NCBI GenBank assembly: GCA_963713825.1
Contig: CAVQNG010000003.1
Location: 553,794 to 617,793, forward strand
Reading direction: 5' to 3'
Length of the DNA stretch: 64,000 bases
Source of the DNA: an uncultured Acidobacteriota bacterium
GTDB taxonomy: Bacteria > Acidobacteriota > Thermoanaerobaculia > Multivoradales > JAHEKO01
Each line of letters begins with the position of its first letter. The first letter of the stretch is position 1. Both the position numbers and the translations under genes were made by a program. Under the pieces are notes generated by a model that saw only the letters and a list, made by a program, of their open reading frames with translations, made no database searches and was not told the origin of the DNA. This document shows positions 8,427-63,440 of this stretch, piece after piece.

Positions 8427-8439
8427 TCCCACCCGCCCT

Positions 8440-8600
8440 CCCGAGGGTTGAGGCGGCCGGGCGTACCTTCCGGCCGATCTTTGAGGGCCTGGGGGTTGAA
8501 GCGGCTGGACTTTGTCCGTCCGGTCTCTGGGGCAGTGGGGCGCAGGTGGTGTTGGGCCCGGCCTCCCCTAAGCCCTTAAGCCCTTACCCCCCTCCCGAAA
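8440..8600. repeat. GC-rich mosaic hairpin repeat locus (REP/BIME-like family)
   Basis: Contains gggttgaggcggccgg-N8-ccggccgatctttgagggcctgggggttgaag, which is the reverse-complement orientation of the unit at 33180-33245. It also carries the cccctaagcccttaagccc motif. The locus lies between convergent genes. Confidence 0.75.
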
Positions 8601-9837: not shown

Positions 9838-9945
9838 GATTCAACCCCCAATGCCCAAGAGCCGGCTGGAGGTACGACGGACGGTCCAACCCCCAAGCCC
9901 CCAAAGAGCGCCCGGCGGTGAGCCGGGCGCCTCCTCCCCCCGGTC
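9838..9945. repeat. GC-rich mosaic hairpin repeat locus
   Basis: Contains tcaacccccaa.gcccaagagccggctggaggtacgacggacggtccaacccccaagcccccaaagagcgcccggcggtgagccgggcgcctc, the same unit family as at 44490, 56790 and 33180. Confidence 0.75.
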
Positions 9946-14149: not shown

Positions 14150-14340
14150 GCGTCGACACGCCGGCAAGGGAACACTCCCTCCCAATCGTCCAGAGGCGTG
14201 GGTCTTGGGGTTGAAGCGTCCGGTCGTCCCACCCGGCCGGTCCTTGAGGGCTTGAGGTTGAAGAGCCCGTCGTCCCTCCGGCCTACCTTTGAGGCAGTGG
14301 GTCTCCCTCCCGTTTTCCTAAGCCCTTAGGCCCCTACGCC
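14150..14340. repeat. GC-rich mosaic hairpin repeat locus
   Basis: Contains gggtcttggggttgaagcgtccggtcgtcccacccggccggtccttgagggcttgaggttgaag and ends with ctaagcccttaggcccctacgccctta, the gcgtaggggcttagggg motif in reverse orientation. Confidence 0.75.
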
Positions 14341-14615
14341 CTTATTGCCTTCAGCGGTGCCAGAGGTTCGTCCCGGGGCCTCTCGACAAGCGCAGCGCAA
14401 GAGCCATGGCAATGCTAGACAGATCCGGTTCGCAGGTGGCGGCCCGCCCTTGAAGTAGGGGAGGGGCTTGCCCCCTCCCACTGGAGCCCTCAAGGGGCTC
14501 CCCTACATTGCCGACGCCGTCCCCCTGCGAGCCACCCGGACGGATCTCAATTCGAGAACGGCCCCGAGACACTGAATAAGAGAACGGCCGGCAGGGGCGC
14601 CGGCCGCTTGAGGAT
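14340..14615 (+). repeat. Structured element of about 200 nt, copy A (candidate MITE or small-RNA family); a ggccggc-loop-gccggcc hairpin follows at 14583-14605
   Basis: Copy A shares these blocks with the copies at 63230-63440 and 51880-52100 (reverse strand): ggtgccaRaggttcgtccSgg, ctcgacaagcgcagcgcaagagcc, caggtggcggcc, gccgacgccgtccSc, and gaRccaccYgg. Relative to the other two copies it carries an extra hairpin pair, ggggaggggcttgccccctccc plus gagccctcaaggggctc. Confidence 0.7.
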
Positions 14616-16765: not shown

Positions 16766-16840
16766 TGGCTCCCCGGGAGGGAGTCGAACCCCCGACCAAT
16801 CGGTTAACAGCCGACCGCTCTACCACTGAGCTACCGAGGA
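16766..16840 (-). tRNA. tRNA-Asn (anticodon GTT)
   Basis: The reverse complement folds as a cloverleaf: acceptor TCCTCGG/CCGGGGA, D-arm GCTC-AGTGGTA-GAGC, anticodon stem GTCGG/CCGAT with loop CTGTTAA, T-loop TTCGACT, and an encoded CCA. Confidence 0.85.
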
Positions 16841-28629: not shown

Positions 28630-28702
28630 GGGTCCATAGCTCAGCGGTTAGAGCATCCGGCTCATAACCGGCAGGTCCCTGGTTCGAATCCAGGTGGGCC
28701 CA
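28630..28702 (+). tRNA. tRNA with a CAU anticodon (elongator Met or Ile2/lysidine; not an initiator)
   Basis: Acceptor GGGTCCA/TGGGCCC, D-arm GCTC-AGCGGTTA-GAGC, anticodon loop CTCATAA, T-loop TTCGAAT, discriminator A. The 3' CCA is not encoded. The paired G1:C72 argues against an initiator tRNA. Confidence 0.8.
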
Positions 28703-31829: not shown

Positions 31830-33097
31830 GCGAACTGTTGATCACCAACCTGTCCGAAATCGCCACACCGATTGGTAACGAGGCTCTGACCGGAGTCGAT
31901 CAAGGCAAGGTTCGTCGCTTGTCAGGGGTCGAAGTCTTGTGCCGAGACGAAGAGATCGCAGGCGTCGGGACGAGGGACGAGATCGAGCGCCAAATGGGCT
32001 CCCTGGAGGCGGTCGAGCGACTCGATGCCGATGGCGGCACCCTGGTGCCGGGGTTCGTGGACCCGCACACCCACCTGCCCTGGGCGGGCAGTCGCGAGGC
32101 AGAGTTCGCTCAGCGCCTGGCGGGTAAGACCTACATGGAGATCGCCGCCGAGGGCGGGGGAATACTGTCCACCGTGCGCGCCACGCGTGAGGCTTCGGAA
32201 CCGGACCTCGCCGAGAGAGTCCTGGATCGCCTCGACCTGATGCTCACCCATGGCACGACTACCGCCGAGGCCAAGAGTGGCTACGGTCTGACCCTCGACG
32301 ACGAGTTGAAGCAACTGCGGGCAATCCGCCACGCCTCCGAGGAGCATCCGGTCGACCTGATACCGACGCTTCTCGCGGCTCATGAGACTCCGCCCGAGTA
32401 TCGCCAACAGAGGGACCGCTATCTCGACATCGTCTGCCAGGAGATCATCCCCGCCACCTCCGAGGCTGGGCTCGCCCAGTTCTGCGATGTCTTCTGTGAG
32501 GAGGGCGTCTTCACGGCCGAGGAATCCCACCGCGTGCTGACAGCCGGTGCAGAGAATGGCCTGGCCCCGAGACTTCACGCCGACGAGTTTGTCGACTCAG
32601 GCGGCGCCGAGTTGGCGGCCGAGCTCAAGGCCCTGTCGGCCGATCACCTCACCGCAGTCTCTCCGGCCGGCGTCGAGGCGATGGCAGCCACCGGCGTTAC
32701 GGCGGTTCTGCTGCCGGGAACCAGCTTCTTCCTCATGAAGCACAAATACGCACCGGCTCGTAGACTCCTCGAGGCGGGCGTGCCGATTGCCCTGGCCACC
32801 GACTGTAATCCGGGATCCTCCTTCACCGAGTCGGTGCCGATGGTCTTCGTACTGGCGGTTTACGAGTTGGGGCTATCGATCGAAGAGGCCTTGACCGCGG
32901 CGACACTGAATGCCGCCTGCTGCCTGGACCTCGGTGAGCGCATCGGATCGATCGAAGTCGGCAAGCAGGCCGACCTGGTAGTTCTCGCCGCACCGAACCT
33001 GCTGCACCTCGCCTACCACTACGGCATCAACCTGGTGAGCGCCGTCGTCAAGAGCGGCAAAGTCGTGCATCAGGCCAGCAACTACAAGCACCTATAA
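31826..33097 (+). CDS. hutI: Imidazolonepropionase
   Basis: GFVDPHTHLPWAGSR ... KSGYGL ... the HutI amidohydrolase fold. The start at MSELL overlaps the preceding stop as ATGA. Confidence 0.88.
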   Translation: MSELLITNLSEIATPIGNEALTGVDQGKVRRLSGVEVLCRDEEIAGVGTRDEIERQMGSLEAVERLDADGGTLVPGFVDPHTHLPWAGSREAEFAQRLAGKTYMEIAAEGGGILSTVRATREASEPDLAERVLDRLDLMLTHGTTTAEAKSGYGLTLDDELKQLRAIRHASEEHPVDLIPTLLAAHETPPEYRQQRDRYLDIVCQEIIPATSEAGLAQFCDVFCEEGVFTAEESHRVLTAGAENGLAPRLHADEFVDSGGAELAAELKALSADHLTAVSPAGVEAMAATGVTAVLLPGTSFFLMKHKYAPARRLLEAGVPIALATDCNPGSSFTESVPMVFVLAVYELGLSIEEALTAATLNAACCLDLGERIGSIEVGKQADLVVLAAPNLLHLAYHYGINLVSAVVKSGKVVHQASNYKHL

Positions 33098-33245
33098 AGA
33101 GGGGGCATAGGGGCGTAGGGGCTTAAGGGCTTAGGGGCGCGGGAGGGGGGGGGGCCACTGCCCTAAAGGTCAGCCGGAGCGAGCGACGGCTGCCTCAACC
33201 CCCAAGCCCTCGAGGATCGGCCGGAGGTACGACCGGCCGCCTCAA
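33095..33245. repeat. GC-rich mosaic hairpin repeat locus; includes a G10 homopolymer
   Basis: gcataggggcgtaggggcttaagggcttaggggcgcgggagggggggggg ... cctcaacccccaagccctcgaggatcggccggaggtacgaccggccgcctcaactc. The hairpin is ggccgg-aggtacga-ccggcc. Confidence 0.75.
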
Positions 33246-33249
33246 CTCT

Positions 33250-34923
33250 CTAGGCCTGCGGATAGCTCGGGCGAATGTCCACCGGCACGTCGTCCAGGCG
33301 TCCGATCGCTTCCAGTAGCGGCGCCGATGCCTGGCCGTAGGTCTCGAGGAACTTCGCGGTTCCCTCGTAGTCGCCAGTCGCCTGCAACATCAGCATCTCG
33401 TTCAGCAGGACCTCGATCGCGGCGGGGAACTTCTCCGACACCGCGTGGAATCGCCCTTCGGCATCGACTTCCAGAGCACCCTTTTCCAGCAGATAATTGA
33501 ACTGCGAGACCACGCCTTGCCCGTGCGCCTCGTGGACACCGAAGCGCGCTGCCCGGAACAACCCCGCCACATACGTCGCTTCCAGGGTCTCGCGCAGCTC
33601 CTTCGGCATCACACCCTTGTCGACCAAGGCGAGGATGTTATAGACGCCCATGACGTCGGCCTTGGCCTCCTCCATCGTGGAGTAGAGCTCCTTGAGCTCC
33701 AGTCGAACCTCGGTGTCGCGTCCGTCGAGTTGGATGAGACCCGGCCCCAAGCCGTGGCTCAACTCGTGATGCAGACTCTCGCTGAAGAACGCATCGAAGG
33801 AGACGCGGGACAGATCTTCCGGCGCCAGGACACGCTCGGCGATCGGCATCAGGATCTTGTCGAACTTGGCTCGCAGAATGTTGCGCAGCATCACCTTCTT
33901 CGATCCCTTCGCCTCGCGCACCCGCTCGTCGTTGGGAAGATTGAAGGCCAGGGTCTGGACTCCGGCCTTGGTGTCTCCACCAGCGAACAGCACATCGACG
34001 ACTCGGATCGGGCTTTCCGTGCCGCGGTCCAGGTTCTTGTGCTCCTCCGGAATGGGCAGGTTCATCTCCAACCACGGCAATTCCTGTTTGAAGCCATCAA
34101 GGGCCGCCGACTCCGCGGGCAAAGCCACGGTGACGAAGGCCTCGTAGGCAGCTTTGTAGCCGAAGAGGCTGTCCTCGTAGGTCTCATAGGGACCGATCGT
34201 CACCTCGACGGGCGAGTCCAGATCCATCCAAGCCACGTCACTGTCGTAGTAATCGTCGGTCTCGAAAGCGTCAGCCCGTAGGGATAGAAAGCTCTGAAGT
34301 GAGGCGTTGTCGGTTGCCGCGGCCGCCTCCCGCAGGTTGGCGATCGCCGGCTCCAGCCACTGGTGGTACTCCTGAGCGTAGGGCACTGCGACCAGTCCGC
34401 CGTCCTGCCGGCGAATCACCGTGAACTCAGAGGTAAAGGCCTCTTCATCCTCTGGGTGCTCGGCGAGCCAGGTCTCGAACTCACTCTGCGTCATATCTTC
34501 TGGGTAGTAGCCGGCCCCTGGTGGGTGCGGCTTGGCCCCGATAAAAGGCGCCATCTCTTCCAGGCGGTCCCACGGACCGAAGTTGACGCTGAAGTAGGCG
34601 CGGCCTGCATCCATCTCGGCACCCTGGGCGTCCTCGAGCTCCGCTTGCAGCGCCGGGTTACCCTGCCAAACCTGACGCAGAAAGATTTCGTCCATCGAGC
34701 GGGCCGCCTGGACCAGGATCTCCAGGACTCGAAGCTCGTCCTCGGACAAGCTCGAAACGTCGGCGACCAACTCGGTCGGCTCGAAACGGGCCAGCCTTTC
34801 GGCGACGTTGGCAGCCACCTCCAGGCCCTCTCCGGCTGCAGGACCAGGCCCCTGCTCGGCCTTCGGGGCGCACCCAGCGAGAACCGCGACGATCAAGACT
34901 CCACTGATTAGCCTCATGTTCAT
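33250..34923 (-). CDS. Zn-metallopeptidase lipoprotein, dipeptidyl-peptidase III-like (M49-like)
   Basis: The lipobox VLAGC is present. HELSHGLG (HExxH) plus a downstream EEAKAD resemble the DPP III motif pair HEXXGH / EECRAE. Confidence 0.6.
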   Translation of the reverse strand: MNMRLISGVLIVAVLAGCAPKAEQGPGPAAGEGLEVAANVAERLARFEPTELVADVSSLSEDELRVLEILVQAARSMDEIFLRQVWQGNPALQAELEDAQGAEMDAGRAYFSVNFGPWDRLEEMAPFIGAKPHPPGAGYYPEDMTQSEFETWLAEHPEDEEAFTSEFTVIRRQDGGLVAVPYAQEYHQWLEPAIANLREAAAATDNASLQSFLSLRADAFETDDYYDSDVAWMDLDSPVEVTIGPYETYEDSLFGYKAAYEAFVTVALPAESAALDGFKQELPWLEMNLPIPEEHKNLDRGTESPIRVVDVLFAGGDTKAGVQTLAFNLPNDERVREAKGSKKVMLRNILRAKFDKILMPIAERVLAPEDLSRVSFDAFFSESLHHELSHGLGPGLIQLDGRDTEVRLELKELYSTMEEAKADVMGVYNILALVDKGVMPKELRETLEATYVAGLFRAARFGVHEAHGQGVVSQFNYLLEKGALEVDAEGRFHAVSEKFPAAIEVLLNEMLMLQATGDYEGTAKFLETYGQASAPLLEAIGRLDDVPVDIRPSYPQA

Positions 34924-35147
34924 CCTCCTGTTCAGACCTGTTTCACCGCAGCAGAGAACCCGACTCGAAACATCTCGGGCTGTATATCTTCCTCACTCCA
35001 GAGGCTATGCCTGTTGAGCTCTCCCGGCAAGGGTTTGGGCCTGTAAACCAGGTCATCACGCTCCTCGGACACGCTGAGCTACAATCCGCCCCGTATCTGG
35101 CCCCGGCCTCATTCGAGTCCGATCGTGGCCAGCCAAGGAGAACGGTC

Positions 35148-35639
35148 ATGAACAAACTCAGATGGTGCGGATTGATCACGGGTCTCCTGCTTCTGGTCTC
35201 TTCCTCTCCCTCGATGGCGGAGCTGGGCTACCAGACCTGGGGTCTCCGCGGTGGCGTCGGTGTCGATCCCGATCAGGGAATCATCGGAGTCCAGTGGAAC
35301 CTGGGCAACTTCACCCGCAGAATCCGGCTGCAGCCCAACTTCGAGCTCGGCTTTGGCGACAACGCCGTCATCGGCAACCTGGGGATTCCGATTCACTATC
35401 GGTTCGGGAACAGTCCAAACTACACCCCTTTCGTAGGGGGCGGAGTGTTGCTCGGCTACATCAACTATGACGAGAAAAAGTCCGGCAGCAGCAGCGACTG
35501 GTTCATCGAGCCCCTGGCCTTGGTGGGTATCGAGTGGCCCCTGAGTGGAGGCGGCCAGCTCTTCGTCGAGCTAGACCTGTCCTTCGGAGACGCCCATGAC
35601 GCCAAGTTACTCCTCGGCTGGATGCGGCGAATTCGCTAG
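35148..35639 (+). CDS. Small outer-membrane beta-barrel protein (OmpW/OmpA-like barrel)
   Basis: A signal peptide is present. The body shows alternating hydrophobic beta-strand patterning with a C-terminal aromatic residue, and the start is preceded by AAGGAGA. Confidence 0.6.
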   Translation: MNKLRWCGLITGLLLLVSSSPSMAELGYQTWGLRGGVGVDPDQGIIGVQWNLGNFTRRIRLQPNFELGFGDNAVIGNLGIPIHYRFGNSPNYTPFVGGGVLLGYINYDEKKSGSSSDWFIEPLALVGIEWPLSGGGQLFVELDLSFGDAHDAKLLLGWMRRIR

Positions 35640-35686
35640 GCGCTATCGCACAGTCTGTGGGTTCTAGAACCTCGTGTGGCACGAGC

Positions 35687-36322
35687 TCACTCGTCCACTA
35701 CAGCTGAACGGCTTGCCAGATCGAGAAGGCCCTCTCCTTCCATGATCTGCGATCGTCGCCGATCCGTCCGGAAGGTGAGAGTCAGCGCCAACGGATCGTC
35801 GCCACCCTTGGCTTTCGCCAACCAGGCTCGAAGCACCGACGCCGGCAGATCCTCGCGGCGATAGCCCCAGACTTCGACACTCAGGCGCTCGGTCGTGACC
35901 CGTTGCTCGTTCGGGTTCTGTGTTTCCCAGGCTAGTGCCGGACGGGTGGAGATACTCAGATGCGTCGGTGAGCCCAGCAAGATCAGCGCCCGGCCGCGAG
36001 CCGTCAAACTGCCGCGGATACCCTCCTCTGCGTACAGCACATCCGCCGCCGCAACACGCTGCTCGTAGGCCTCATGGTAGGGATTGCCGGGCTCCTCTGG
36101 GCGAGGATCTCGCCGCGACCAGAAAGCCTCGATGAAGGTGGCAGCCTCCTCCGGGTCCTGAATCTGACGGATCTCCCTTCGCTCGCTCGGCAGGAGGAGC
36201 CATCGGACGGGACCCTCTGCCCAGGCGCTCGGATCCTCCGGCCCCGCAGCCCAGGCGCGAGCCGGTGGCCAGCCAACACCAAGAACCACAATCACGGTCA
36301 AGCCGAGAGCCAGGTTCCGCAT
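35687..36322 (-). CDS. GWxTD-domain protein
   Basis: FWSRRDP ... YHEAYEQRVAAADVLY ... GSLTARGRALILLGSP matches the GWxTD family pattern G.xTDRG..yi..G.P. Confidence 0.6.
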   Translation of the reverse strand: MRNLALGLTVIVVLGVGWPPARAWAAGPEDPSAWAEGPVRWLLLPSERREIRQIQDPEEAATFIEAFWSRRDPRPEEPGNPYHEAYEQRVAAADVLYAEEGIRGSLTARGRALILLGSPTHLSISTRPALAWETQNPNEQRVTTERLSVEVWGYRREDLPASVLRAWLAKAKGGDDPLALTLTFRTDRRRSQIMEGEGLLDLASRSAVVDE

Positions 36323-36350
36323 GATCAGACCTGCCCCGAGGACGCCAAGG

Positions 36351-37718
36351 TTAGTCCTGATCGTCCTCGTGTGAAGGCAGCTTCCAGTGCACGGCCTCAT
36401 CGAACTCCCAACGGTAACGCGGGAAATAGACTCCCACTCCGCGCTCCGCGGAAATCATCGAGAAGCTCAAGAAACGGCGGTGATAGTCATAGGGGTACCC
36501 ATCTCGGGCATGGACAGCGACATCGAGCAGATACTCGCCGGGGGCCAGACGAAACGCTGGGCAAACGAGTCGCACAAGGGTCCGACCCTCGACTCCTTCC
36601 GAGGCGTATCCGGAGAGGCCCGTGTTGGTGCCCCAGACCTCGACATCCCGAGGCGTGAAGACGCCGATCCCGAAGACGAAGTCCGTCAACTCCTGATGCG
36701 CTTCGACTTCGATCTCGAAGCACACTTCCTCACCGCTCTCCAGGTTGTATTTCTCCTGACCGTTGGCGTCGAGTAACCGGACACCCAGGATCTCTGCCTC
36801 TCCCGAGCCCCATCGCCGCGGCTCCTCCGCGCCCTCGACACCAGCTTCCCCGTGTGATTGACTCCCCTGCTGACCATCGGCGTCGACGGCCTTGGTCGAA
36901 TCTATATCCGAAGCCTCTACGAGCTCTCTCTGGCGCGCCTCCTTGGCAGCCAGATGCGCCTCACCCTCTCGTTCGGCCACCGCCAATCGATAGGCATCCG
37001 CCACCCGCCGCGGTGAGCCGAGCAGTCGGTTGCGCCCCTTCTCGAGCCACAGCACCTCATCCGAAAACCGCTCGATGGTGTCCAGCGAGTGGCTGACCAG
37101 CAAGAGGGTGTTGCCCTTGGCGAGGAACTCCTCGATACGTCTTAGACAACGATGCTGAAAAGCCTCGTCTCCCACGGCCAGCACCTCGTCCACCAGCAGG
37201 ATCTCGGGGTCCGTATGGATCGCCACCGAGAATCCGAGTCTGACGTACATGCCCGAAGAGTAGTTCTTGACCGGCTCCTCGATGAAATCCGCCAACCCAG
37301 AGAACTCCACGATGTCGTCGTATCGGCGATCGATCTCCTTGCGGCTCAAACCCAGAACCGCACCGTTGATGTAGACGTTCTCGCGACCCGAGATCTCGGG
37401 ATGGAAGCCGGCTCCCAACTCGATCAGTGCGGCCACCCGGCCCGTCACGTCGACGCTCCCCTCGGTCGGCTGCAACATGCCCGCGAGGATCTTGAGCAGG
37501 GTCGACTTGCCGGACCCATTGCTGCCGATGACGCCGAACGCGGTTCCTTTCTTGACCGTGAAGGAGACGTCTTCCAGCGCCAGAATGGTGTCTTCCTCAC
37601 GATGACCTCCAACCAGGCTGCGTTGGAGCAGCGCACTCTTGAGCGTCCTCAACCGGAAGCCAGGCGCCATCCGCAGATAGGACTTGTGCAGGTTCTCGAC
37701 CTGGATGGCGACGCTCAT
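36351..37718 (-). CDS. Polysaccharide/O-antigen ABC exporter ATPase (Wzt/TagH/KpsT family) with a C-terminal substrate-binding domain
   Basis: Walker A (GSNGSGKST), the ABC signature (YSSGMYVRLGFS) and Walker B (LLVDEVLAVGD) are present. The start is the ATG at 37718, overlapping the permease stop as ATGA. The track's longer N-terminus is not coding. Confidence 0.85.
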   Translation of the reverse strand: MSVAIQVENLHKSYLRMAPGFRLRTLKSALLQRSLVGGHREEDTILALEDVSFTVKKGTAFGVIGSNGSGKSTLLKILAGMLQPTEGSVDVTGRVAALIELGAGFHPEISGRENVYINGAVLGLSRKEIDRRYDDIVEFSGLADFIEEPVKNYSSGMYVRLGFSVAIHTDPEILLVDEVLAVGDEAFQHRCLRRIEEFLAKGNTLLLVSHSLDTIERFSDEVLWLEKGRNRLLGSPRRVADAYRLAVAEREGEAHLAAKEARQRELVEASDIDSTKAVDADGQQGSQSHGEAGVEGAEEPRRWGSGEAEILGVRLLDANGQEKYNLESGEEVCFEIEVEAHQELTDFVFGIGVFTPRDVEVWGTNTGLSGYASEGVEGRTLVRLVCPAFRLAPGEYLLDVAVHARDGYPYDYHRRFLSFSMISAERGVGVYFPRYRWEFDEAVHWKLPSHEDDQD

Positions 37719-38521
37719 ACCGCCTCCACCAGGCTGTCGCTGAGTCGGCCGAAGAGCCAGCAGCCCGCGACCCACAGAAGGGCACCCCAACCGACCATTT
37801 GAATCCAGATCTGCAATGACGGCACCACGCCCTGGAACAGAACAGCTTGGTAGGCCCGAGCGTACGGGGTGAAGGGATTGAGCCACTCGATCGCCCATAT
37901 CAGAGGAGGGTAGGCCTTGAGAAAATCGAGAGGGTAGATGATCGGCGTCAAGTAGAAAAGAAGCGCCAGCAGATTGCCGACAATGTCCTTGACGTCCTTG
38001 AAGTGGACATTGAGAGCCGACAGGCCCAGAGTCAAGCCGCCCAGAGCCGGTAGCTGTAGCGCCACGACGATTGGAAACAACACCACCGTCCATCCGCCGA
38101 TGGGATCGCCGAGGATCCGACCGATGATCAATCCGGCTACCAGAATCGGTATCGCGAAGACGAAGTGAACCAGGTTTGAGAGCACCGAGACCATGGGCAA
38201 GACCTCGGCGGGAAAGACAGCCTTGCGGATCAGCCCGGAGTTGGCCGTCAACGACTGGGTGCCCTCCATCAAGGAGGTGGCAACCCAGGTCCATGGAAAC
38301 AGACCGGTCATCAAGAAAAGTACGTACGGGTCCGTGCCTTCGAAGCGAGGCTTGAAGACCACGCTGAAGACGAAGGTGTAGACCCCAAGCAGCAACAGCG
38401 GAGTGACGAGTGACCAGAAGAACCCGAGCACGGAGCCCCGGTAGCGCGCCTTGAGCTCCCTCGACACCAGGGTGGCCAGCAGGCCGCGGAATCGGAACAG
38501 TCTGTCCGCAACTTTGGTCAT
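37715..38521 (-). CDS. ABC-2 type polysaccharide exporter permease (Wzm/TagG/KpsM family)
   Basis: RELKARYRGSVLGFFWSLVTPLL ... six transmembrane helices. The start is at MTKVADRLF. Confidence 0.85.
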   Translation of the reverse strand: MTKVADRLFRFRGLLATLVSRELKARYRGSVLGFFWSLVTPLLLLGVYTFVFSVVFKPRFEGTDPYVLFLMTGLFPWTWVATSLMEGTQSLTANSGLIRKAVFPAEVLPMVSVLSNLVHFVFAIPILVAGLIIGRILGDPIGGWTVVLFPIVVALQLPALGGLTLGLSALNVHFKDVKDIVGNLLALLFYLTPIIYPLDFLKAYPPLIWAIEWLNPFTPYARAYQAVLFQGVVPSLQIWIQMVGWGALLWVAGCWLFGRLSDSLVEAV

Positions 38522-38718
38522 TCTGAGAATCGGACTTTCACTCGGTCGCCCTGACGAGCCGGCATCGCCAACCCTGCCAAAGGCCTGTCCCGCTTGGCGC
38601 CAACGCAAAGAGTACAGCAACGCGACGCAACCATGGTGAACTCAAGCGGAGGCGATGAGAAACACCCCTCCAGATTAGCGCGAAAGGCTGCTATTCAGGT
38701 GACGTGCCGAGGACTGGA

Positions 38719-39906
38719 TCAACCACCCGTCTCGGCGCGGGTCCGCCGCTGATCTTCTTCCAGCCGTCGCAGGCGATCGAGCAGCTCCTGACGACGATGC
38801 TCCACCTCCGCCTCGTAGTCGATCAGCTTGCCGTTGTTGACGACATAGACCCGAGGATATTTCTGGACGTCGCCCCTCTCGTCGAACTGGATGGTACCGG
38901 CGGCACCCGTGAAGTCACGCAGCGATCGCACGGCGCTCCAGAATTCGTTTGGTATCGCACCGGATCGGCGCAGCGCCTCGGCCAGAACCATCATGGCGTC
39001 GAAGCCGTGCACGGCGTAGAGATTGGGGTCACTGTTGTACTTGGCTCGGTAGCTCTCCACGAAAGCCTTCGTCTCGGGCTCTTCTGAGTCGAGATCGAAG
39101 GCCGCCTGGGTCAGAAAAACGCCCTCTGCTGGCCGCCCCACCTTGGCAATGATCTCTGGCGCAGCAAAGGCCGAGGTCGTGAAGATGGTCTCCTTGTAAC
39201 CCTGGTCGCGCAGATAGCCGATCATCTGGGCCAGGTCGTCGGCATAGGCCGCCAGATAGACCGCGTCCGGCTGTAGGGTCATCACCCTCTCGATGACGCC
39301 GGACAGATCCGAGGACAGGGATGGAAACTCGATGGTCTCGACCACCTCTCCTCCGTGGCGCTCGAACTCCTTCCGAAAGACCTCCTGAATCCCCATGGCG
39401 TACTCACTTTGCTTGGCCAGGACCACGACCCTTTCGGCATTCATCTTCTGGGTCGCGAAGTTGCCCATCGTGGCACCCTCGCGGGCATCCGAAGGAAAAA
39501 CCCGATAGAAATTCTTCGAGATTCCGGTGAGCTGGGGCGTCGAGGCCGACGGCGACATCAGCACTCGATCGTTCTCGTCAGCCACTGCCACCATCGACAG
39601 AGCTTCGGGCGTCGTGACGCCGCCGATCACGGCCAATGCATCCTGTTCATAGAGATCCGCCAGGAGCTGCTTGGCTTTCTCTGGATCGCTCTCGGAATCG
39701 ACCACGACCAGCTCGAGCTCGTAGGGAAAGTCACCCAGCGTCTGGAGCTGCTCGATGGCCAGCTCCACGCCCTTGCGGATCGGCTCTCCGTAGACCGCAG
39801 CCTCCCCAGTCAAAGGCAGCACGGCCCCGAATTTGACCGGCTTGTCCTTTTGGCAGGCGACAACTGTCGAGAGCAGAACGAGCAGGAGAATGCTTTTCTT
39901 CGTCAT
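38719..39906 (-). CDS. ABC transporter substrate-binding lipoprotein, branched-chain amino-acid type (LivK/Peripla_BP_6), with a coiled-coil C-terminal tail
   Basis: FGAVLPLTGEAAVYGEPIRKGVELA ... plus a lipobox. The tail is an extra EAEVEHRRQELLDRLRRLEEDQRR. Confidence 0.8.
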   Translation of the reverse strand: MTKKSILLLVLLSTVVACQKDKPVKFGAVLPLTGEAAVYGEPIRKGVELAIEQLQTLGDFPYELELVVVDSESDPEKAKQLLADLYEQDALAVIGGVTTPEALSMVAVADENDRVLMSPSASTPQLTGISKNFYRVFPSDAREGATMGNFATQKMNAERVVVLAKQSEYAMGIQEVFRKEFERHGGEVVETIEFPSLSSDLSGVIERVMTLQPDAVYLAAYADDLAQMIGYLRDQGYKETIFTTSAFAAPEIIAKVGRPAEGVFLTQAAFDLDSEEPETKAFVESYRAKYNSDPNLYAVHGFDAMMVLAEALRRSGAIPNEFWSAVRSLRDFTGAAGTIQFDERGDVQKYPRVYVVNNGKLIDYEAEVEHRRQELLDRLRRLEEDQRRTRAETGG

Positions 39907-40070
39907 GGTCGATTCACCGGCTTTCCGTTGATTGAACCAAGAACCTTTCTAACCCACGACCTACACACTATCAAGCCATCGCAACCCTACCTCGAAAGAT
40001 TGCCACAGATCGACCTCATACCGCTAGTCGAGGCACCACAAATGTAGAAGAGCTAGAATAGACACCCGCC

Positions 40071-44394: not shown

Positions 44395-44575
44395 CAGGGC
44401 GTAGGGGCGTAGGGGCGTAGGGGCGTAGGGGCGTAGAAGACAATACCCAATAGCTCAAGACCTCAGTGCCCCTCAAGCCCCCAAAGGCAGGCCGTAGGAA
44501 CGCCGGCCTCCTCAACCCCCAAGCCCTCAAAGAACGTCGGGCGGTGAGCCGGACGCCTCAACCCTCAAGGTTCCG
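44395..44575. repeat. GC-rich mosaic hairpin repeat locus, including a 4x tandem 8-mer (cgtagggg)
   Basis: gggcgtaggggcgtaggggcgtaggggcgtag ... ggccgtaggaacgccggcctcctcaacccccaagccctcaaagaacgtcgggcggtgagccggacgcctcaaccctcaagg. Confidence 0.75.
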
Positions 44576-51879: not shown

Positions 51880-52115
51880 ATAGCCACCAACGAGCGGAGG
51901 TCCGTCCGGGTGGTTCGCAGGCGGACGGCGTCGGCTACTCAGACTGCAACGGGCGGGCCGCCACCTTGTCACGTCATCGCGCCTCATCTCTTGTGTTCTG
52001 CGATGGTCCTTGCGCTGCGCTCGACGTGGCACCCCCTGTCGAACCACCCGGACGAACCTCTGGCACCGGTGGTCGCATTGAGGCAGTGGGGCACTGAAGG
52101 CGTAGGGGCTTAGGG
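51880..52115 (-). repeat. Structured element of about 200 nt, copy C (reverse orientation), plus a gcgtaggggcttagggg motif
   Basis: The reverse complement of 51880-52090 aligns block-by-block with copies A and B: ggtgccagaggttcgtccgggtggttcgacagggggtgccacgtcgagcgcagcgcaag ... caaggtggcggcccgcccgttgcagtctgagtagccgacgccgtccgcctgcgaaccacccggacggacc. Confidence 0.7.
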
Positions 52116-52291
52116 GACAGAAGACTCGTAGGTACAGAAGTACAAGGCCGTGCCCAGGGTTCGGCGTGGGGACCTCCAGGGGGTTCTTGCAGCGGAAGGG
52201 AGGATAGCCCCCTGGGGGCCCCACGGTGAACGCCTCCTTGGAAGAACGGTTTGGGTTGACGCACAAAAGGGCCGCAGAGGCGCCGGTCGAA

Positions 52292-56739: not shown

Positions 56740-56870
56740 CGGCCGGCAGAGGCGCCGGCCGCTTCTGTCCTCAAAGATCAGCCGAGGCACGCCGGCTGCC
56801 TCAACCCCAAGCCCTCAGAGAACGCCCGGCGGTGAGCCGGGCGCCTCGACCCTGACGACCCGAGCCGATA
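56740..56870. repeat. GC-rich mosaic hairpin repeat locus
   Basis: gcggccggc-agag-gccggccgc hairpin, also seen at 14583, followed by ctgcctcaaccccaagccctcagagaacgcccggcggtgagccgggcgcctc. Confidence 0.75.
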
Positions 56871-57839: not shown

Positions 57840-57955
57840 GATCTCGAGACCCCTACGCCCTGAAGCCCCTGAGCCTCTATTGCCCAGGACCCAAGCCCTC
57901 AAGGACCGGCCGAGACAAAGTCCGGCCGCCTCAACCCCCAAGCCCTCATTGCCTC
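57840..57955. repeat. GC-rich mosaic hairpin repeat locus
   Basis: cccctacgccctgaagcccctgagcc ... ggaccggccgagacaaagtccggccgcctcaacccccaagccctca. Confidence 0.75.
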
Positions 57956-62997: not shown

Positions 62998-63059
62998 GTC
63001 GTCCATTCAAACCAGGCCACACGCTTCACCGCCGGGGGGGCAACTCCCCGGCGCTTTTT

Positions 63060-63230
63060 GTTCCCGCCTAGCCGATGGCTAGGCAGTCAAGGGTTGAGGC
63101 GTCCGGTCGTTCCTTCCGGACGATCTATGAGGGCTTGGGGGTTGAACCGGCCGCACTCCGTGTCGGCCGGCCTTTGGGGCTTGGGGGAACAGCCGACAAA
63201 CAACCCTCGCGCCCCTACTGTCCTATGCCC
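63060..63230. repeat. GC-rich mosaic hairpin repeat locus
   Basis: gggttgaggcgtccgg-tcgttcct-tccggacgatctatgagggcttgggggttgaaccggccg-cactccgtg-tcggccgg ... ggggcttggggg. Confidence 0.75.
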
Positions 63231-63440
63231 TTACGCCCCCCTTGGTGCCAAAGGTTCGTCCGGGTGGTTCGGCAGGGGGGGCTCGACAAGCGCAGCGCAA
63301 GAGCCGTCGAAGTTCACGGCCCATCCGGCGCGCCGGAGAGCGCAGGTGGCGGCCAAACCCGTCAAAGCCTGAGTAGCCGACGCCGTCCCCCGGCGAACCA
63401 CCTGGGCGCGGACCCCCACTACCAGTTTCTCGATAGGATC
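63230..63440 (+). repeat. Structured element of about 200 nt, copy B
   Basis: ggtgccaaaggttcgtccgggtggttcggcagggggggctcgacaagcgcagcgcaagagcc ... gcaggtggcggccaaacccgtcaaagcctgagtagccgacgccgtcccccggcgaaccacctgggcgcggacc. The 5' block ggtggttcg is complementary to the 3' block cgaaccacc. Confidence 0.7.

Follow-up and report, generated by a model that had tools for sequence, protein, structure and literature searches.

Is a self-complementary element that recurs in the intergenic DNA of an uncultured Acidobacteriota bacterium a piece of mobile DNA or a gene for a structured RNA? The question arises from a stretch of 64,000 nt (contig CAVQNG010000003.1 of assembly GCA_963713825.1, positions 553,794 to 617,793), which we refer to in its entirety as the window, and which contains exactly three copies of the element, A, B and C, as determined by direct reading, alignment, and pattern and profile searches. 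An earlier note, made from the sequence alone, had left two readings side by side, the closing helix of an RNA and the terminal inverted repeats of a miniature inverted-repeat transposable element (MITE). Our analyses show that the copies belong to a family with a conserved fold and that this fold is strand-specific; that copies are gained, lost, inverted and replaced at orthologous loci; and that those retained are strongly conserved. Our preferred account, which we put forward tentatively, is that the element is a non-autonomous mobile element of the REPIN (repetitive extragenic palindromic (REP) doublet forming a hairpin) or MITE type, copied or selected through a single-stranded and probably RNA form.

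The best preserved of the three is copy C (51897-52067, reverse strand), an intact core of 171 nt belonging to the subfamily that we call type I (nhmmer 1e-53; covariance model (CM) R1, 207 bits), for which the minimum free energy is -88.8 kcal/mol with z = -4.4. Copy B (63244-63415, forward strand) is likewise a type I core, with an alternative form of helix P2 (GCTC../..GAGAGC) and a 2-nt bulge in helix P1 (nhmmer 7e-37; CM R1, 127 bits), and copy A (14356-14548, forward strand) is a degraded member of a second subfamily, type II (nhmmer 9e-18; CM R1, 54.5 bits). All three are present at the positions and on the strands originally reported. Each of three block patterns matches just these sites, where chance would yield 0.2-0.6 matches, and at E<0.1 CM R1 recovers from the window, beyond A, B and C, only the reverse strand of C, with 43 bits. 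The conserved blocks do occur in the order first described, but copy A is without the second of them (gtggttcgRcaggggg), and the stretches between blocks, which had been called unrelated, are in fact variable regions that can be aligned, B and C being about 75% identical overall.

Further copies are numerous and confined in their distribution. A genome scan with two interior blocks, taking one genome per species, returned 70 stretches; the 21 that carry the whole element come from four metagenome-assembled genomes (MAGs) labelled Thermoanaerobaculia or Acidobacteriota, with 2-8 exact matches per MAG. A metagenome scan with the 5' arm gave at least 120 stretches. The further copies found by these pattern scans, more than 130 in number, all lie in Thermoanaerobaculia or Acidobacteriota MAGs and in sediment metagenomes, and nhmmer applied to the loci and the window distinguishes at least 114 full-length and at least 41 partial copies, of which at least 94 are distinct; pairwise identity averages 81%. 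Truncated and chimeric copies also exist among the loci. The family is restricted to one clade of Thermoanaerobaculia, a group of sediment Acidobacteriota, with a copy number of roughly ten to a few tens per genome. Closest to the window among the sequences found is the metagenome contig L130 (Ga0316187_10003930), which is nearly the same around copy C, its flanks matching those of this copy at 94.6% on one side and 99.7% on the other. No family in Rfam 15 matches the copies; at gathering score the window yields two tRNA genes only (16769-16840, reverse strand, and 28630-28702, forward strand), and the best sub-threshold hits (E of at least 0.2) are spurious. Viral contigs and plasmid and phage collections hold no real match to the element, and a literature search for the sequence blocks and for repeats of this class produced none. 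The element is therefore a previously undescribed, lineage-specific family of 170 bases within the broad kind of structured dispersed intergenic repeats. Its core is embedded in a mosaic of other repeats, modules M1-M4, to which we return below.

The core has a sharp start, GGTGCCAGAGG, and closes with GGACCTC, and outside these limits information content drops to background. On the given strand it folds into a Y shape, in which a closing stem of 21+7 bp leads to a three-way junction bearing helices P2 and P3. The 21 bp of P1 pair GAGGUUCGUYCGGGUGGUUCG with CGRRCCACCCGGACGRRCCUC and hold two GGUUCG/CGRRCC boxes, and the 7-bp extension pairs CAGGGGG with CCSCCUG. P2 joins U-GCC-nnn-UC.. to ..GA-nnn-GAC-A, and GCGC to GCGC, beneath a cap composed of the near-invariant AGCGCAAG followed by about 27 variable nt, while P3 joins GGUGGCGGC to GCCGMCGCC and in type I is capped by a 21-nt loop. 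The complementarity between 5' and 3' blocks that had been remarked upon is thus a 21-bp helix with a 7-bp extension, complete in C, carrying the 2-nt bulge and wobble pairs in B, and cut by a 13-nt deletion in A. In copy C, all on the reverse strand, the 5' strand of P1 (GAGGTTCGTCCGGGTGGTTCG, with two GGTTCG boxes) occupies 52040-52060 and pairs with the 3' strand (CGAACCACCCGGACGGACCTC) at 51897-51917; the 5' strand of P2 (TGCCACGTC .. GCGC) at 52017-52031 pairs with its 3' strand (GCGC .. GACGTGACA) at 51967-51982; the apical region of P2, AGCGCAAG with the most variable stretch, spans 51983-52016; and P3 (GGTGGCGGC / GCCGACGCC) with its loop spans 51927-51965.

Support for this fold was measured on a MAFFT alignment of 87 distinct copies, in 66 of which the 5' arm had been fixed by the search pattern. 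Standard pairs fill 92.6% of cells (97.5% in P1, 89.6% in P3), falling to 38-52% if the partners are slid by 1-3 columns, and eight pairs are changed on both sides. The clearest covariation lies in P2, where pair 42/107 is UA in 46 copies, CG in 33 and GC in 6, and pair 46/103 is AU in 14 and UA in 12, the remaining copies having tandem G.A at two middle positions; the winB/L014 subtype, to which copy B belongs, has GCUCUC/GAGAGC in place of both P2 strands. P3 contributes pair 111/146 (UG 61, CG 14, UA 6) and a G.A at 113/144 that becomes G-C in 14 copies. Pairing within the apical region of P2 was considered and rejected, the correlated columns there not being base-pair compatible. Neither the covariation score nor the count of doubly changed cells is reached by any of 500 shuffles. 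A fold that is conserved and covaries on a single strand, as seen here, is the generic mark of a structured non-coding RNA.

The fold is also specific to one strand. Mismatches in P1 are of the G.U type in 272 cells and of the A.C type in 5, and pairing in P1, at 97.5% on the strand of the element, is 82.8% when read on the opposite strand. Purines facing U vary freely between A and G, while the Us themselves are conserved and the G facing C is almost invariant. A set of 18 sequences anchored on the interior blocks has the same bias towards G.U (about 47 versus 4), and CM R1 gives copy C 207 bits on its own strand and 43 on the reverse. Such strand-biased wobble pairing indicates selection on a single-stranded fold, whether of RNA or of single-stranded DNA, and not recognition of double-stranded terminal repeats.

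This bears directly on one alternative, that the element is a classical MITE, an internally deleted insertion sequence of the DDE type whose arms are double-stranded terminal inverted repeats bound by a transposase and whose RNA-like fold is incidental. Terminal inverted repeats are certainly present in the form of the arms (21 bp, or 28 bp with the extension), and the size of about 170 bp, the intergenic location, the subfamilies that differ by insertions and deletions, and the polymorphism in presence and orientation described below would all be expected of a MITE. Correia elements of Neisseria, which are MITEs of 100-155 bp with 26-bp inverted repeats and a TA duplication, are processed by RNase III when transcribed. 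Our element resembles them in size, inverted arms, intergenic spread, indel subfamilies, a stem of a length suited to RNase III, and the want of a known transposase; it differs in its strand-specific wobble and covarying internal helices and in having no detected target duplication, and the sequences are unrelated. Neither the conservation of Ts in the 5' arm opposite variable partners, with mismatches nearly all of G.T type on one strand, nor the covariation of internal helices is what recognition of duplex arms would produce. Flanking direct repeats, which had been named as the hallmark of a MITE, are not in excess: within 6 nt of the core ends, repeats of 4-9 bp are no more frequent than in shuffled flank pairings (7 observed and 10.5 expected for k=5), a test that covers 4-9 bp at the core ends and not 2-3 bp, nor ends lying outside the M3 and M4 flanks. 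With no transposase-bearing partner in three arm-to-arm intervals, and no occurrence in plasmid and phage collections, we regard a classical MITE as improbable.

The evidence for mobility comes from comparison of related genomes, in which the element is polymorphic by absence, by inversion and by replacement with another subfamily. At the locus syntenic with 32333-39952 of the window, one MAG (L036) carries core and tail in one orientation and another (L019) in the opposite orientation, where the window has no core; the corresponding site, 33097-33160, retains only a reverse-complement array of the C-rich repeat M3. At the locus of copy A, a close relative (L182; 96.8% identical over the best aligned block and 86-89% nearer the copy) bears an intact copy of type I, and L139, more distantly related, bears one of type II that is inverted along with its flanking M3 and M4. 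Two further loci, L155 and L163, have flanks that are 98% identical around cores that are mutually inverted and 86.5% identical to each other. The cores of a few orthologous pairs match at only about 81%, a value consistent with replacement and equal to the family background. Contig breaks inside the element in MAGs, and the truncated and chimeric copies, also speak for mobility. The earlier note's two readings have therefore each been borne out in part: strand-specific pairing, the covariation in P2 and the low score on the reverse strand speak for structure, and absence, inversion and replacement speak for mobility, but neither a target duplication of 4-9 bp, as in a MITE, nor an autonomous partner was found.

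Among known kinds of repeat, REPINs best unite turnover like that of mobile DNA with constraint like that of a structured RNA, and it is for this reason that we favour an element of the REPIN type. REPINs are extragenic and multi-copy, their hairpins show compensatory changes, and they lack target duplication (PMC3116915); they are thought to be moved via a single-stranded intermediate by an enzyme encoded elsewhere, and they persist vertically (PMC3116915, PMC3337134). The present element has all of these outward properties, being extragenic, multi-copy, non-coding and vertically persistent, with a long hairpin bearing compensatory changes and no target duplication of 4-9 bp. Its single-stranded form might be RNA, namely the transcript, or else DNA acted on by an enzyme whose gene lies elsewhere in the genome, and new copies would settle mainly in repeat-rich DNA beside the 3' ends of genes. 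Once transcribed, a copy would form a stable structured RNA, the long stem of which is a plausible site for RNase III or for a binding protein.

Several observations weigh against an element of this type. Retained orthologous cores in the same orientation are 89-98% identical without gaps, amid adjacent intergenic DNA that is 13-60% identical, and in the flanking genes identity is 61-83% at third, 85-93% at first and 92-99% at second codon positions. This looks like purifying selection on each copy, and fits an RNA gene used by the host better than a selfish repeat; either purifying selection on each copy or frequent homogenisation would account for it. Conservation is as strong in the interior as in the arms, an unusual feature in a MITE or a REPIN, and the ends of a mobile unit are undefined, since the copies sit within the M1-M4 mosaic. 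The arms (GAGGTTCGTYCGGGTGGTTCG) are not self-palindromic REPs and are without the unpaired GTAG/CGTC tag; further differences from REPINs are the length, about 170 nt as opposed to about 70-110, and the interior, which is a conserved three-way junction and not a free spacer. No REP-associated tyrosine transposase (RAYT) was seen in the window and the sampled loci, a tblastn search with E. coli RayT, covering about 1.3 Mb from many genomes (191 loci besides the window), giving a best E-value of 0.8, and the three widest arm-to-arm intervals (2.1-3.6 kb) enclose housekeeping genes and no transposase. As to the alignment, the fixing of the 5' arm by the search pattern in most copies means that most variation in P1 comes from the 3' arm, and subfamily structure inflates the covariation counts. 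We therefore describe the element as working like a REPIN but do not class it as one, for its arms lack the REP doublet by which REPINs are defined and no RAYT was seen in the DNA covered; only the type II insertion has the architecture of such a doublet.

The same conservation favours the main alternative, in which the copies are paralogous small-RNA genes with a function for the host, each transcribed on its own as a Y-shaped RNA of about 170-200 nt and spread by duplication and recombination, not by transposition. The C-rich leader could possibly serve as a seed region, or the RNA could bind a protein. Besides the strand-specific pairing and covariation, such genes would explain the invariant loop motifs AGCGCAAG and GUCUGAGUAGCC, orthologous copies that are conserved like first and second codon positions and stand as islands in fast-evolving intergenic DNA, an orientation independent of flanking genes, the CUUG and GNRA tetraloops of the type II module, and the companion hairpin M1, which in about 30% of copies stands upstream at a set distance and in a set orientation. 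Copies A and B also lie beyond the canonical intrinsic terminators of their neighbours, that of the pterin dehydratase gene (14583-14608, reverse strand), between this gene and copy A, and that of the TonB-type receptor gene (63030-63053, forward strand), between that gene and copy B. Yet neither a sigma-70-like promoter nor an intrinsic terminator is assignable to any copy in the window, and several features are more usual in mobile repeats: genomes hold tens of near-identical copies, close strains differ by replacement and inversion at one locus, some copies are truncated or chimeric, and copies are scarce between divergent genes. We consider small-RNA genes of this kind rather unlikely, while recognising them as the chief competitor to a REPIN-like element. 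It seems to us doubtful that the element represents a new class of mobile RNA gene with a role in the host, its Y-shaped product of about 170 nt maintained by purifying selection locus by locus, bearing two repeated protein-binding boxes in the stem and acting with a partner protein encoded in trans. On that reading M1 may belong to the same unit.

The placement of copies provides a further constraint. Across the loci, 26 copies lie between convergent genes and 5 between divergent genes, and in tandem regions 13 are sense and 18 antisense. This is the placement of a tolerated insertion, and it argues against a sense-strand role in the upstream messenger. The excess of copies between convergent genes and after gene ends, together with a stem long enough for RNase III and an association with the hairpin-bearing M2 modules, might nonetheless suggest a cis-acting element at gene 3' ends, comparable to REPs or bacterial interspersed mosaic elements (BIMEs) and serving as a messenger stabiliser, a terminator, an RNase III site, or a DNA site for gyrase or a nucleoid protein. 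This we think very unlikely, given that antisense copies are as common as sense copies in tandem regions, that copy B follows the terminator of its upstream gene and copy A lies beyond that of a neighbour on the other strand, and that a role in double-stranded DNA would not yield strand-specific wobble pairing. The classical MITE and the cis-acting element both rank as less likely than the REPIN-like and small-RNA accounts.

Nor does the element appear to encode or accompany a protein. No conserved open reading frame (ORF) exists in the core: open frames start at GTG in the arm, the start is not conserved, and the products are Arg/Pro-rich strings; the peptide strings noticed earlier as common to different copies derive from such frames, which are not conserved as genes. 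Arm-to-arm lengths fall into two classes, 163-165 and 207-212, differing by 44-48 nt, and 44 is not a multiple of three. A type I toxin-antitoxin locus was ruled out, there being no conserved ORF for a small hydrophobic peptide. No transposase, reverse transcriptase, nuclease or other gene recurs as a neighbour, 227 neighbouring ORFs forming clusters of five or fewer, all of them orthologues. The lack of a constant gene family, with the variable orientation to neighbours, rules out a cis-regulatory RNA such as a riboswitch or leader. Guide RNAs (the bridge RNA of IS110, the omega RNA of IscB or TnpB, and the non-coding RNA of retrons) were rejected as well, because no enzyme gene recurs beside the element and because the complementarity of the variable loops to the flanks of their own copy does not exceed that to the flanks of other copies.

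The family has practical and wider significance. Thermoanaerobaculia are abundant in sediments, uncultured and poorly studied, and the element provides a ready marker for their genomes. Four contigs of MAG CSMAG_2557 (L004, L019, L041 and L064) end inside the element, which shows that the repeat breaks short-read assemblies of these genomes; the family hence explains contig breaks in MAGs, as well as spurious ORFs predicted across copies. It presents an unusually clear case in which signs of mobility are joined to selection on a single-stranded fold as strong as that on coding positions. If the copies are transcribed, a large structured RNA would be added to a phylum with few known RNAs, and if an enzyme moves them, the REPIN-type lifestyle would be extended to a far more elaborate cargo and to a new phylum.

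Copy A deserves separate description. Its P3 loop carries the type II insertion (14455-14506, forward strand), two hairpins within GTAGGGG...CCCCTAC, so that the loop is replaced by GUAGGGGAGGGGC-UUG-CCCCCUCCC-GCG-GGAGCCC-GCAA-GGGGCUCCCCUAC. The module is near-identical, with its CUUG and GCAA loops, in at least 14 other copies from other genomes or contigs, and is therefore the mark of a subfamily and not a private polymorphism of copy A. The two self-complementary insertions first described in copy A are thus real, but what was taken for an insertion polymorphism is a subfamily trait combined with the loss of one strand from each of two helices: P1 lacks 13 nt on the inner side of its 5' strand, and P2 lacks its 3' strand. 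Copy A folds no better than shuffled sequences (z = -1.8, compared with -4.4 for copy C), and is a decaying member of the family. GTAG-tagged REPs lie mainly between unidirectional and convergent ORFs (PMC3733652), and the type II module resembles them (PMC3733652) in consisting of GTAG followed by a G+C-rich hairpin, twice and inverted. It differs in that the motif, in the window and sampled loci, lies mostly within the core family and is not an abundant independent REP, and the arms of the core are untagged. Membership of the CGTC-tagged REPs was rejected, since the features given in PMC3733652 do not fit. Internally deleted short forms occur at about 4338-4454 of L128 and at 216-332 of L176, in which GGTGGCGG is fused to (G)ACCACCCGGACGGACCTC or further 3', removing P3 and the 3' strand of P1b.

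All three copies in the window are intergenic, as originally stated, and lie amid genes of ordinary chromosomal function. The neighbours of copy A are the pterin dehydratase gene and a gene for a large protein with a weak endonuclease/exonuclease/phosphatase-family domain; those of copy C encode a CHASE2 cyclase and an MscS-cNMP channel, and those of copy B the TonB-type receptor and an M29 peptidase.

The mosaic around the core is built of modules in variable combinations, mostly downstream of genes, in the manner of pneumococcal BOX elements and enterobacterial BIMEs. The sequences are unrelated to these, and the core is one large conserved fold as opposed to a chain of short boxes. The most constant companion is M3, a C-rich repeat of 8-9 nt (CCCCTAAG / CCCCTACGC) found directly 5' of nearly every copy and recognisable as a periodic CCCCTAnGCC consensus upstream of nearly all of 70 distinct copies. 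In the window it forms the leader of copy C at 52068-52117 (reverse strand), directly 5' of the core, and, by sequence and consensus, those of copies A and B at 14318-14355 and 63205-63243 (both forward strand). M3 also occurs alone, at 33100-33140 of the window and as (GGGGCTTA)x7 at about 8200-8280 of L156; its G-rich strand could form quadruplexes, and its unit is similar to GTAGGGG, with which the type II module begins. M4 is a tail with CAGGACC repeats, 3' of about 40% of copies.

M2 consists of tandem G-rich units (GGGCTTGGGGGTTGAAGC - hairpin - CTTTGAGGGCTTGGGG) in which the stems vary and the loop TCGTNCCTY is conserved. It is frequent near the core and, in either orientation, downstream of many genes in the window (8428-8541, 9847-9933, 14182-14303, 33156-33258, 44470-44570, 56765-56862, 57885-57948 and 63091-63187), and looks like a REP-type or terminator repeat. 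A stem motif common to all modules, CGTCCGG/CCGGACG, was considered and dropped, because the stems of M2 vary while its loops are conserved.

M1, a frequent companion, is a long hairpin of about 90 nt, present upstream of copy C at 52151-52239 (reverse strand). Of 55 matches to M1 in the sampled loci, 39 precede a core of the same orientation by 40-350 nt. Its apical part (CCCAGGGGGCTATCCTCCCTTCCGCTGCAAGAACCCCCTGGG) and loop are invariant, while its lower stem of at least about 15 bp covaries, being exchanged wholesale between subtypes with complementarity kept; M1 has no match above threshold in Rfam. In the commonest subtype the mismatches are C.A on the strand of the core, and by eye the opposite strand gives the better pairing. 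A sigma-54-like interpretation of the spacer between M1 and the core, likewise judged by eye, was dropped as the spacing is inconsistent. In long composites a solitary arm-like GAGGTCCGYCCGGGTGG stands upstream of M1 (L043 at 1026-1045, L016, L049, and L163 at about 2000-2020), such that one 3' arm could pair with either of two 5' arms, one at a distance of about 385-443 nt and the other of about 165 nt, which could reflect nested elements or alternative pairing. Finally, several core copies at other loci are followed, after 25-45 nt, by a conserved hairpin, AACGGCCGSCAGRGGCGSCGGCCGCTTC.

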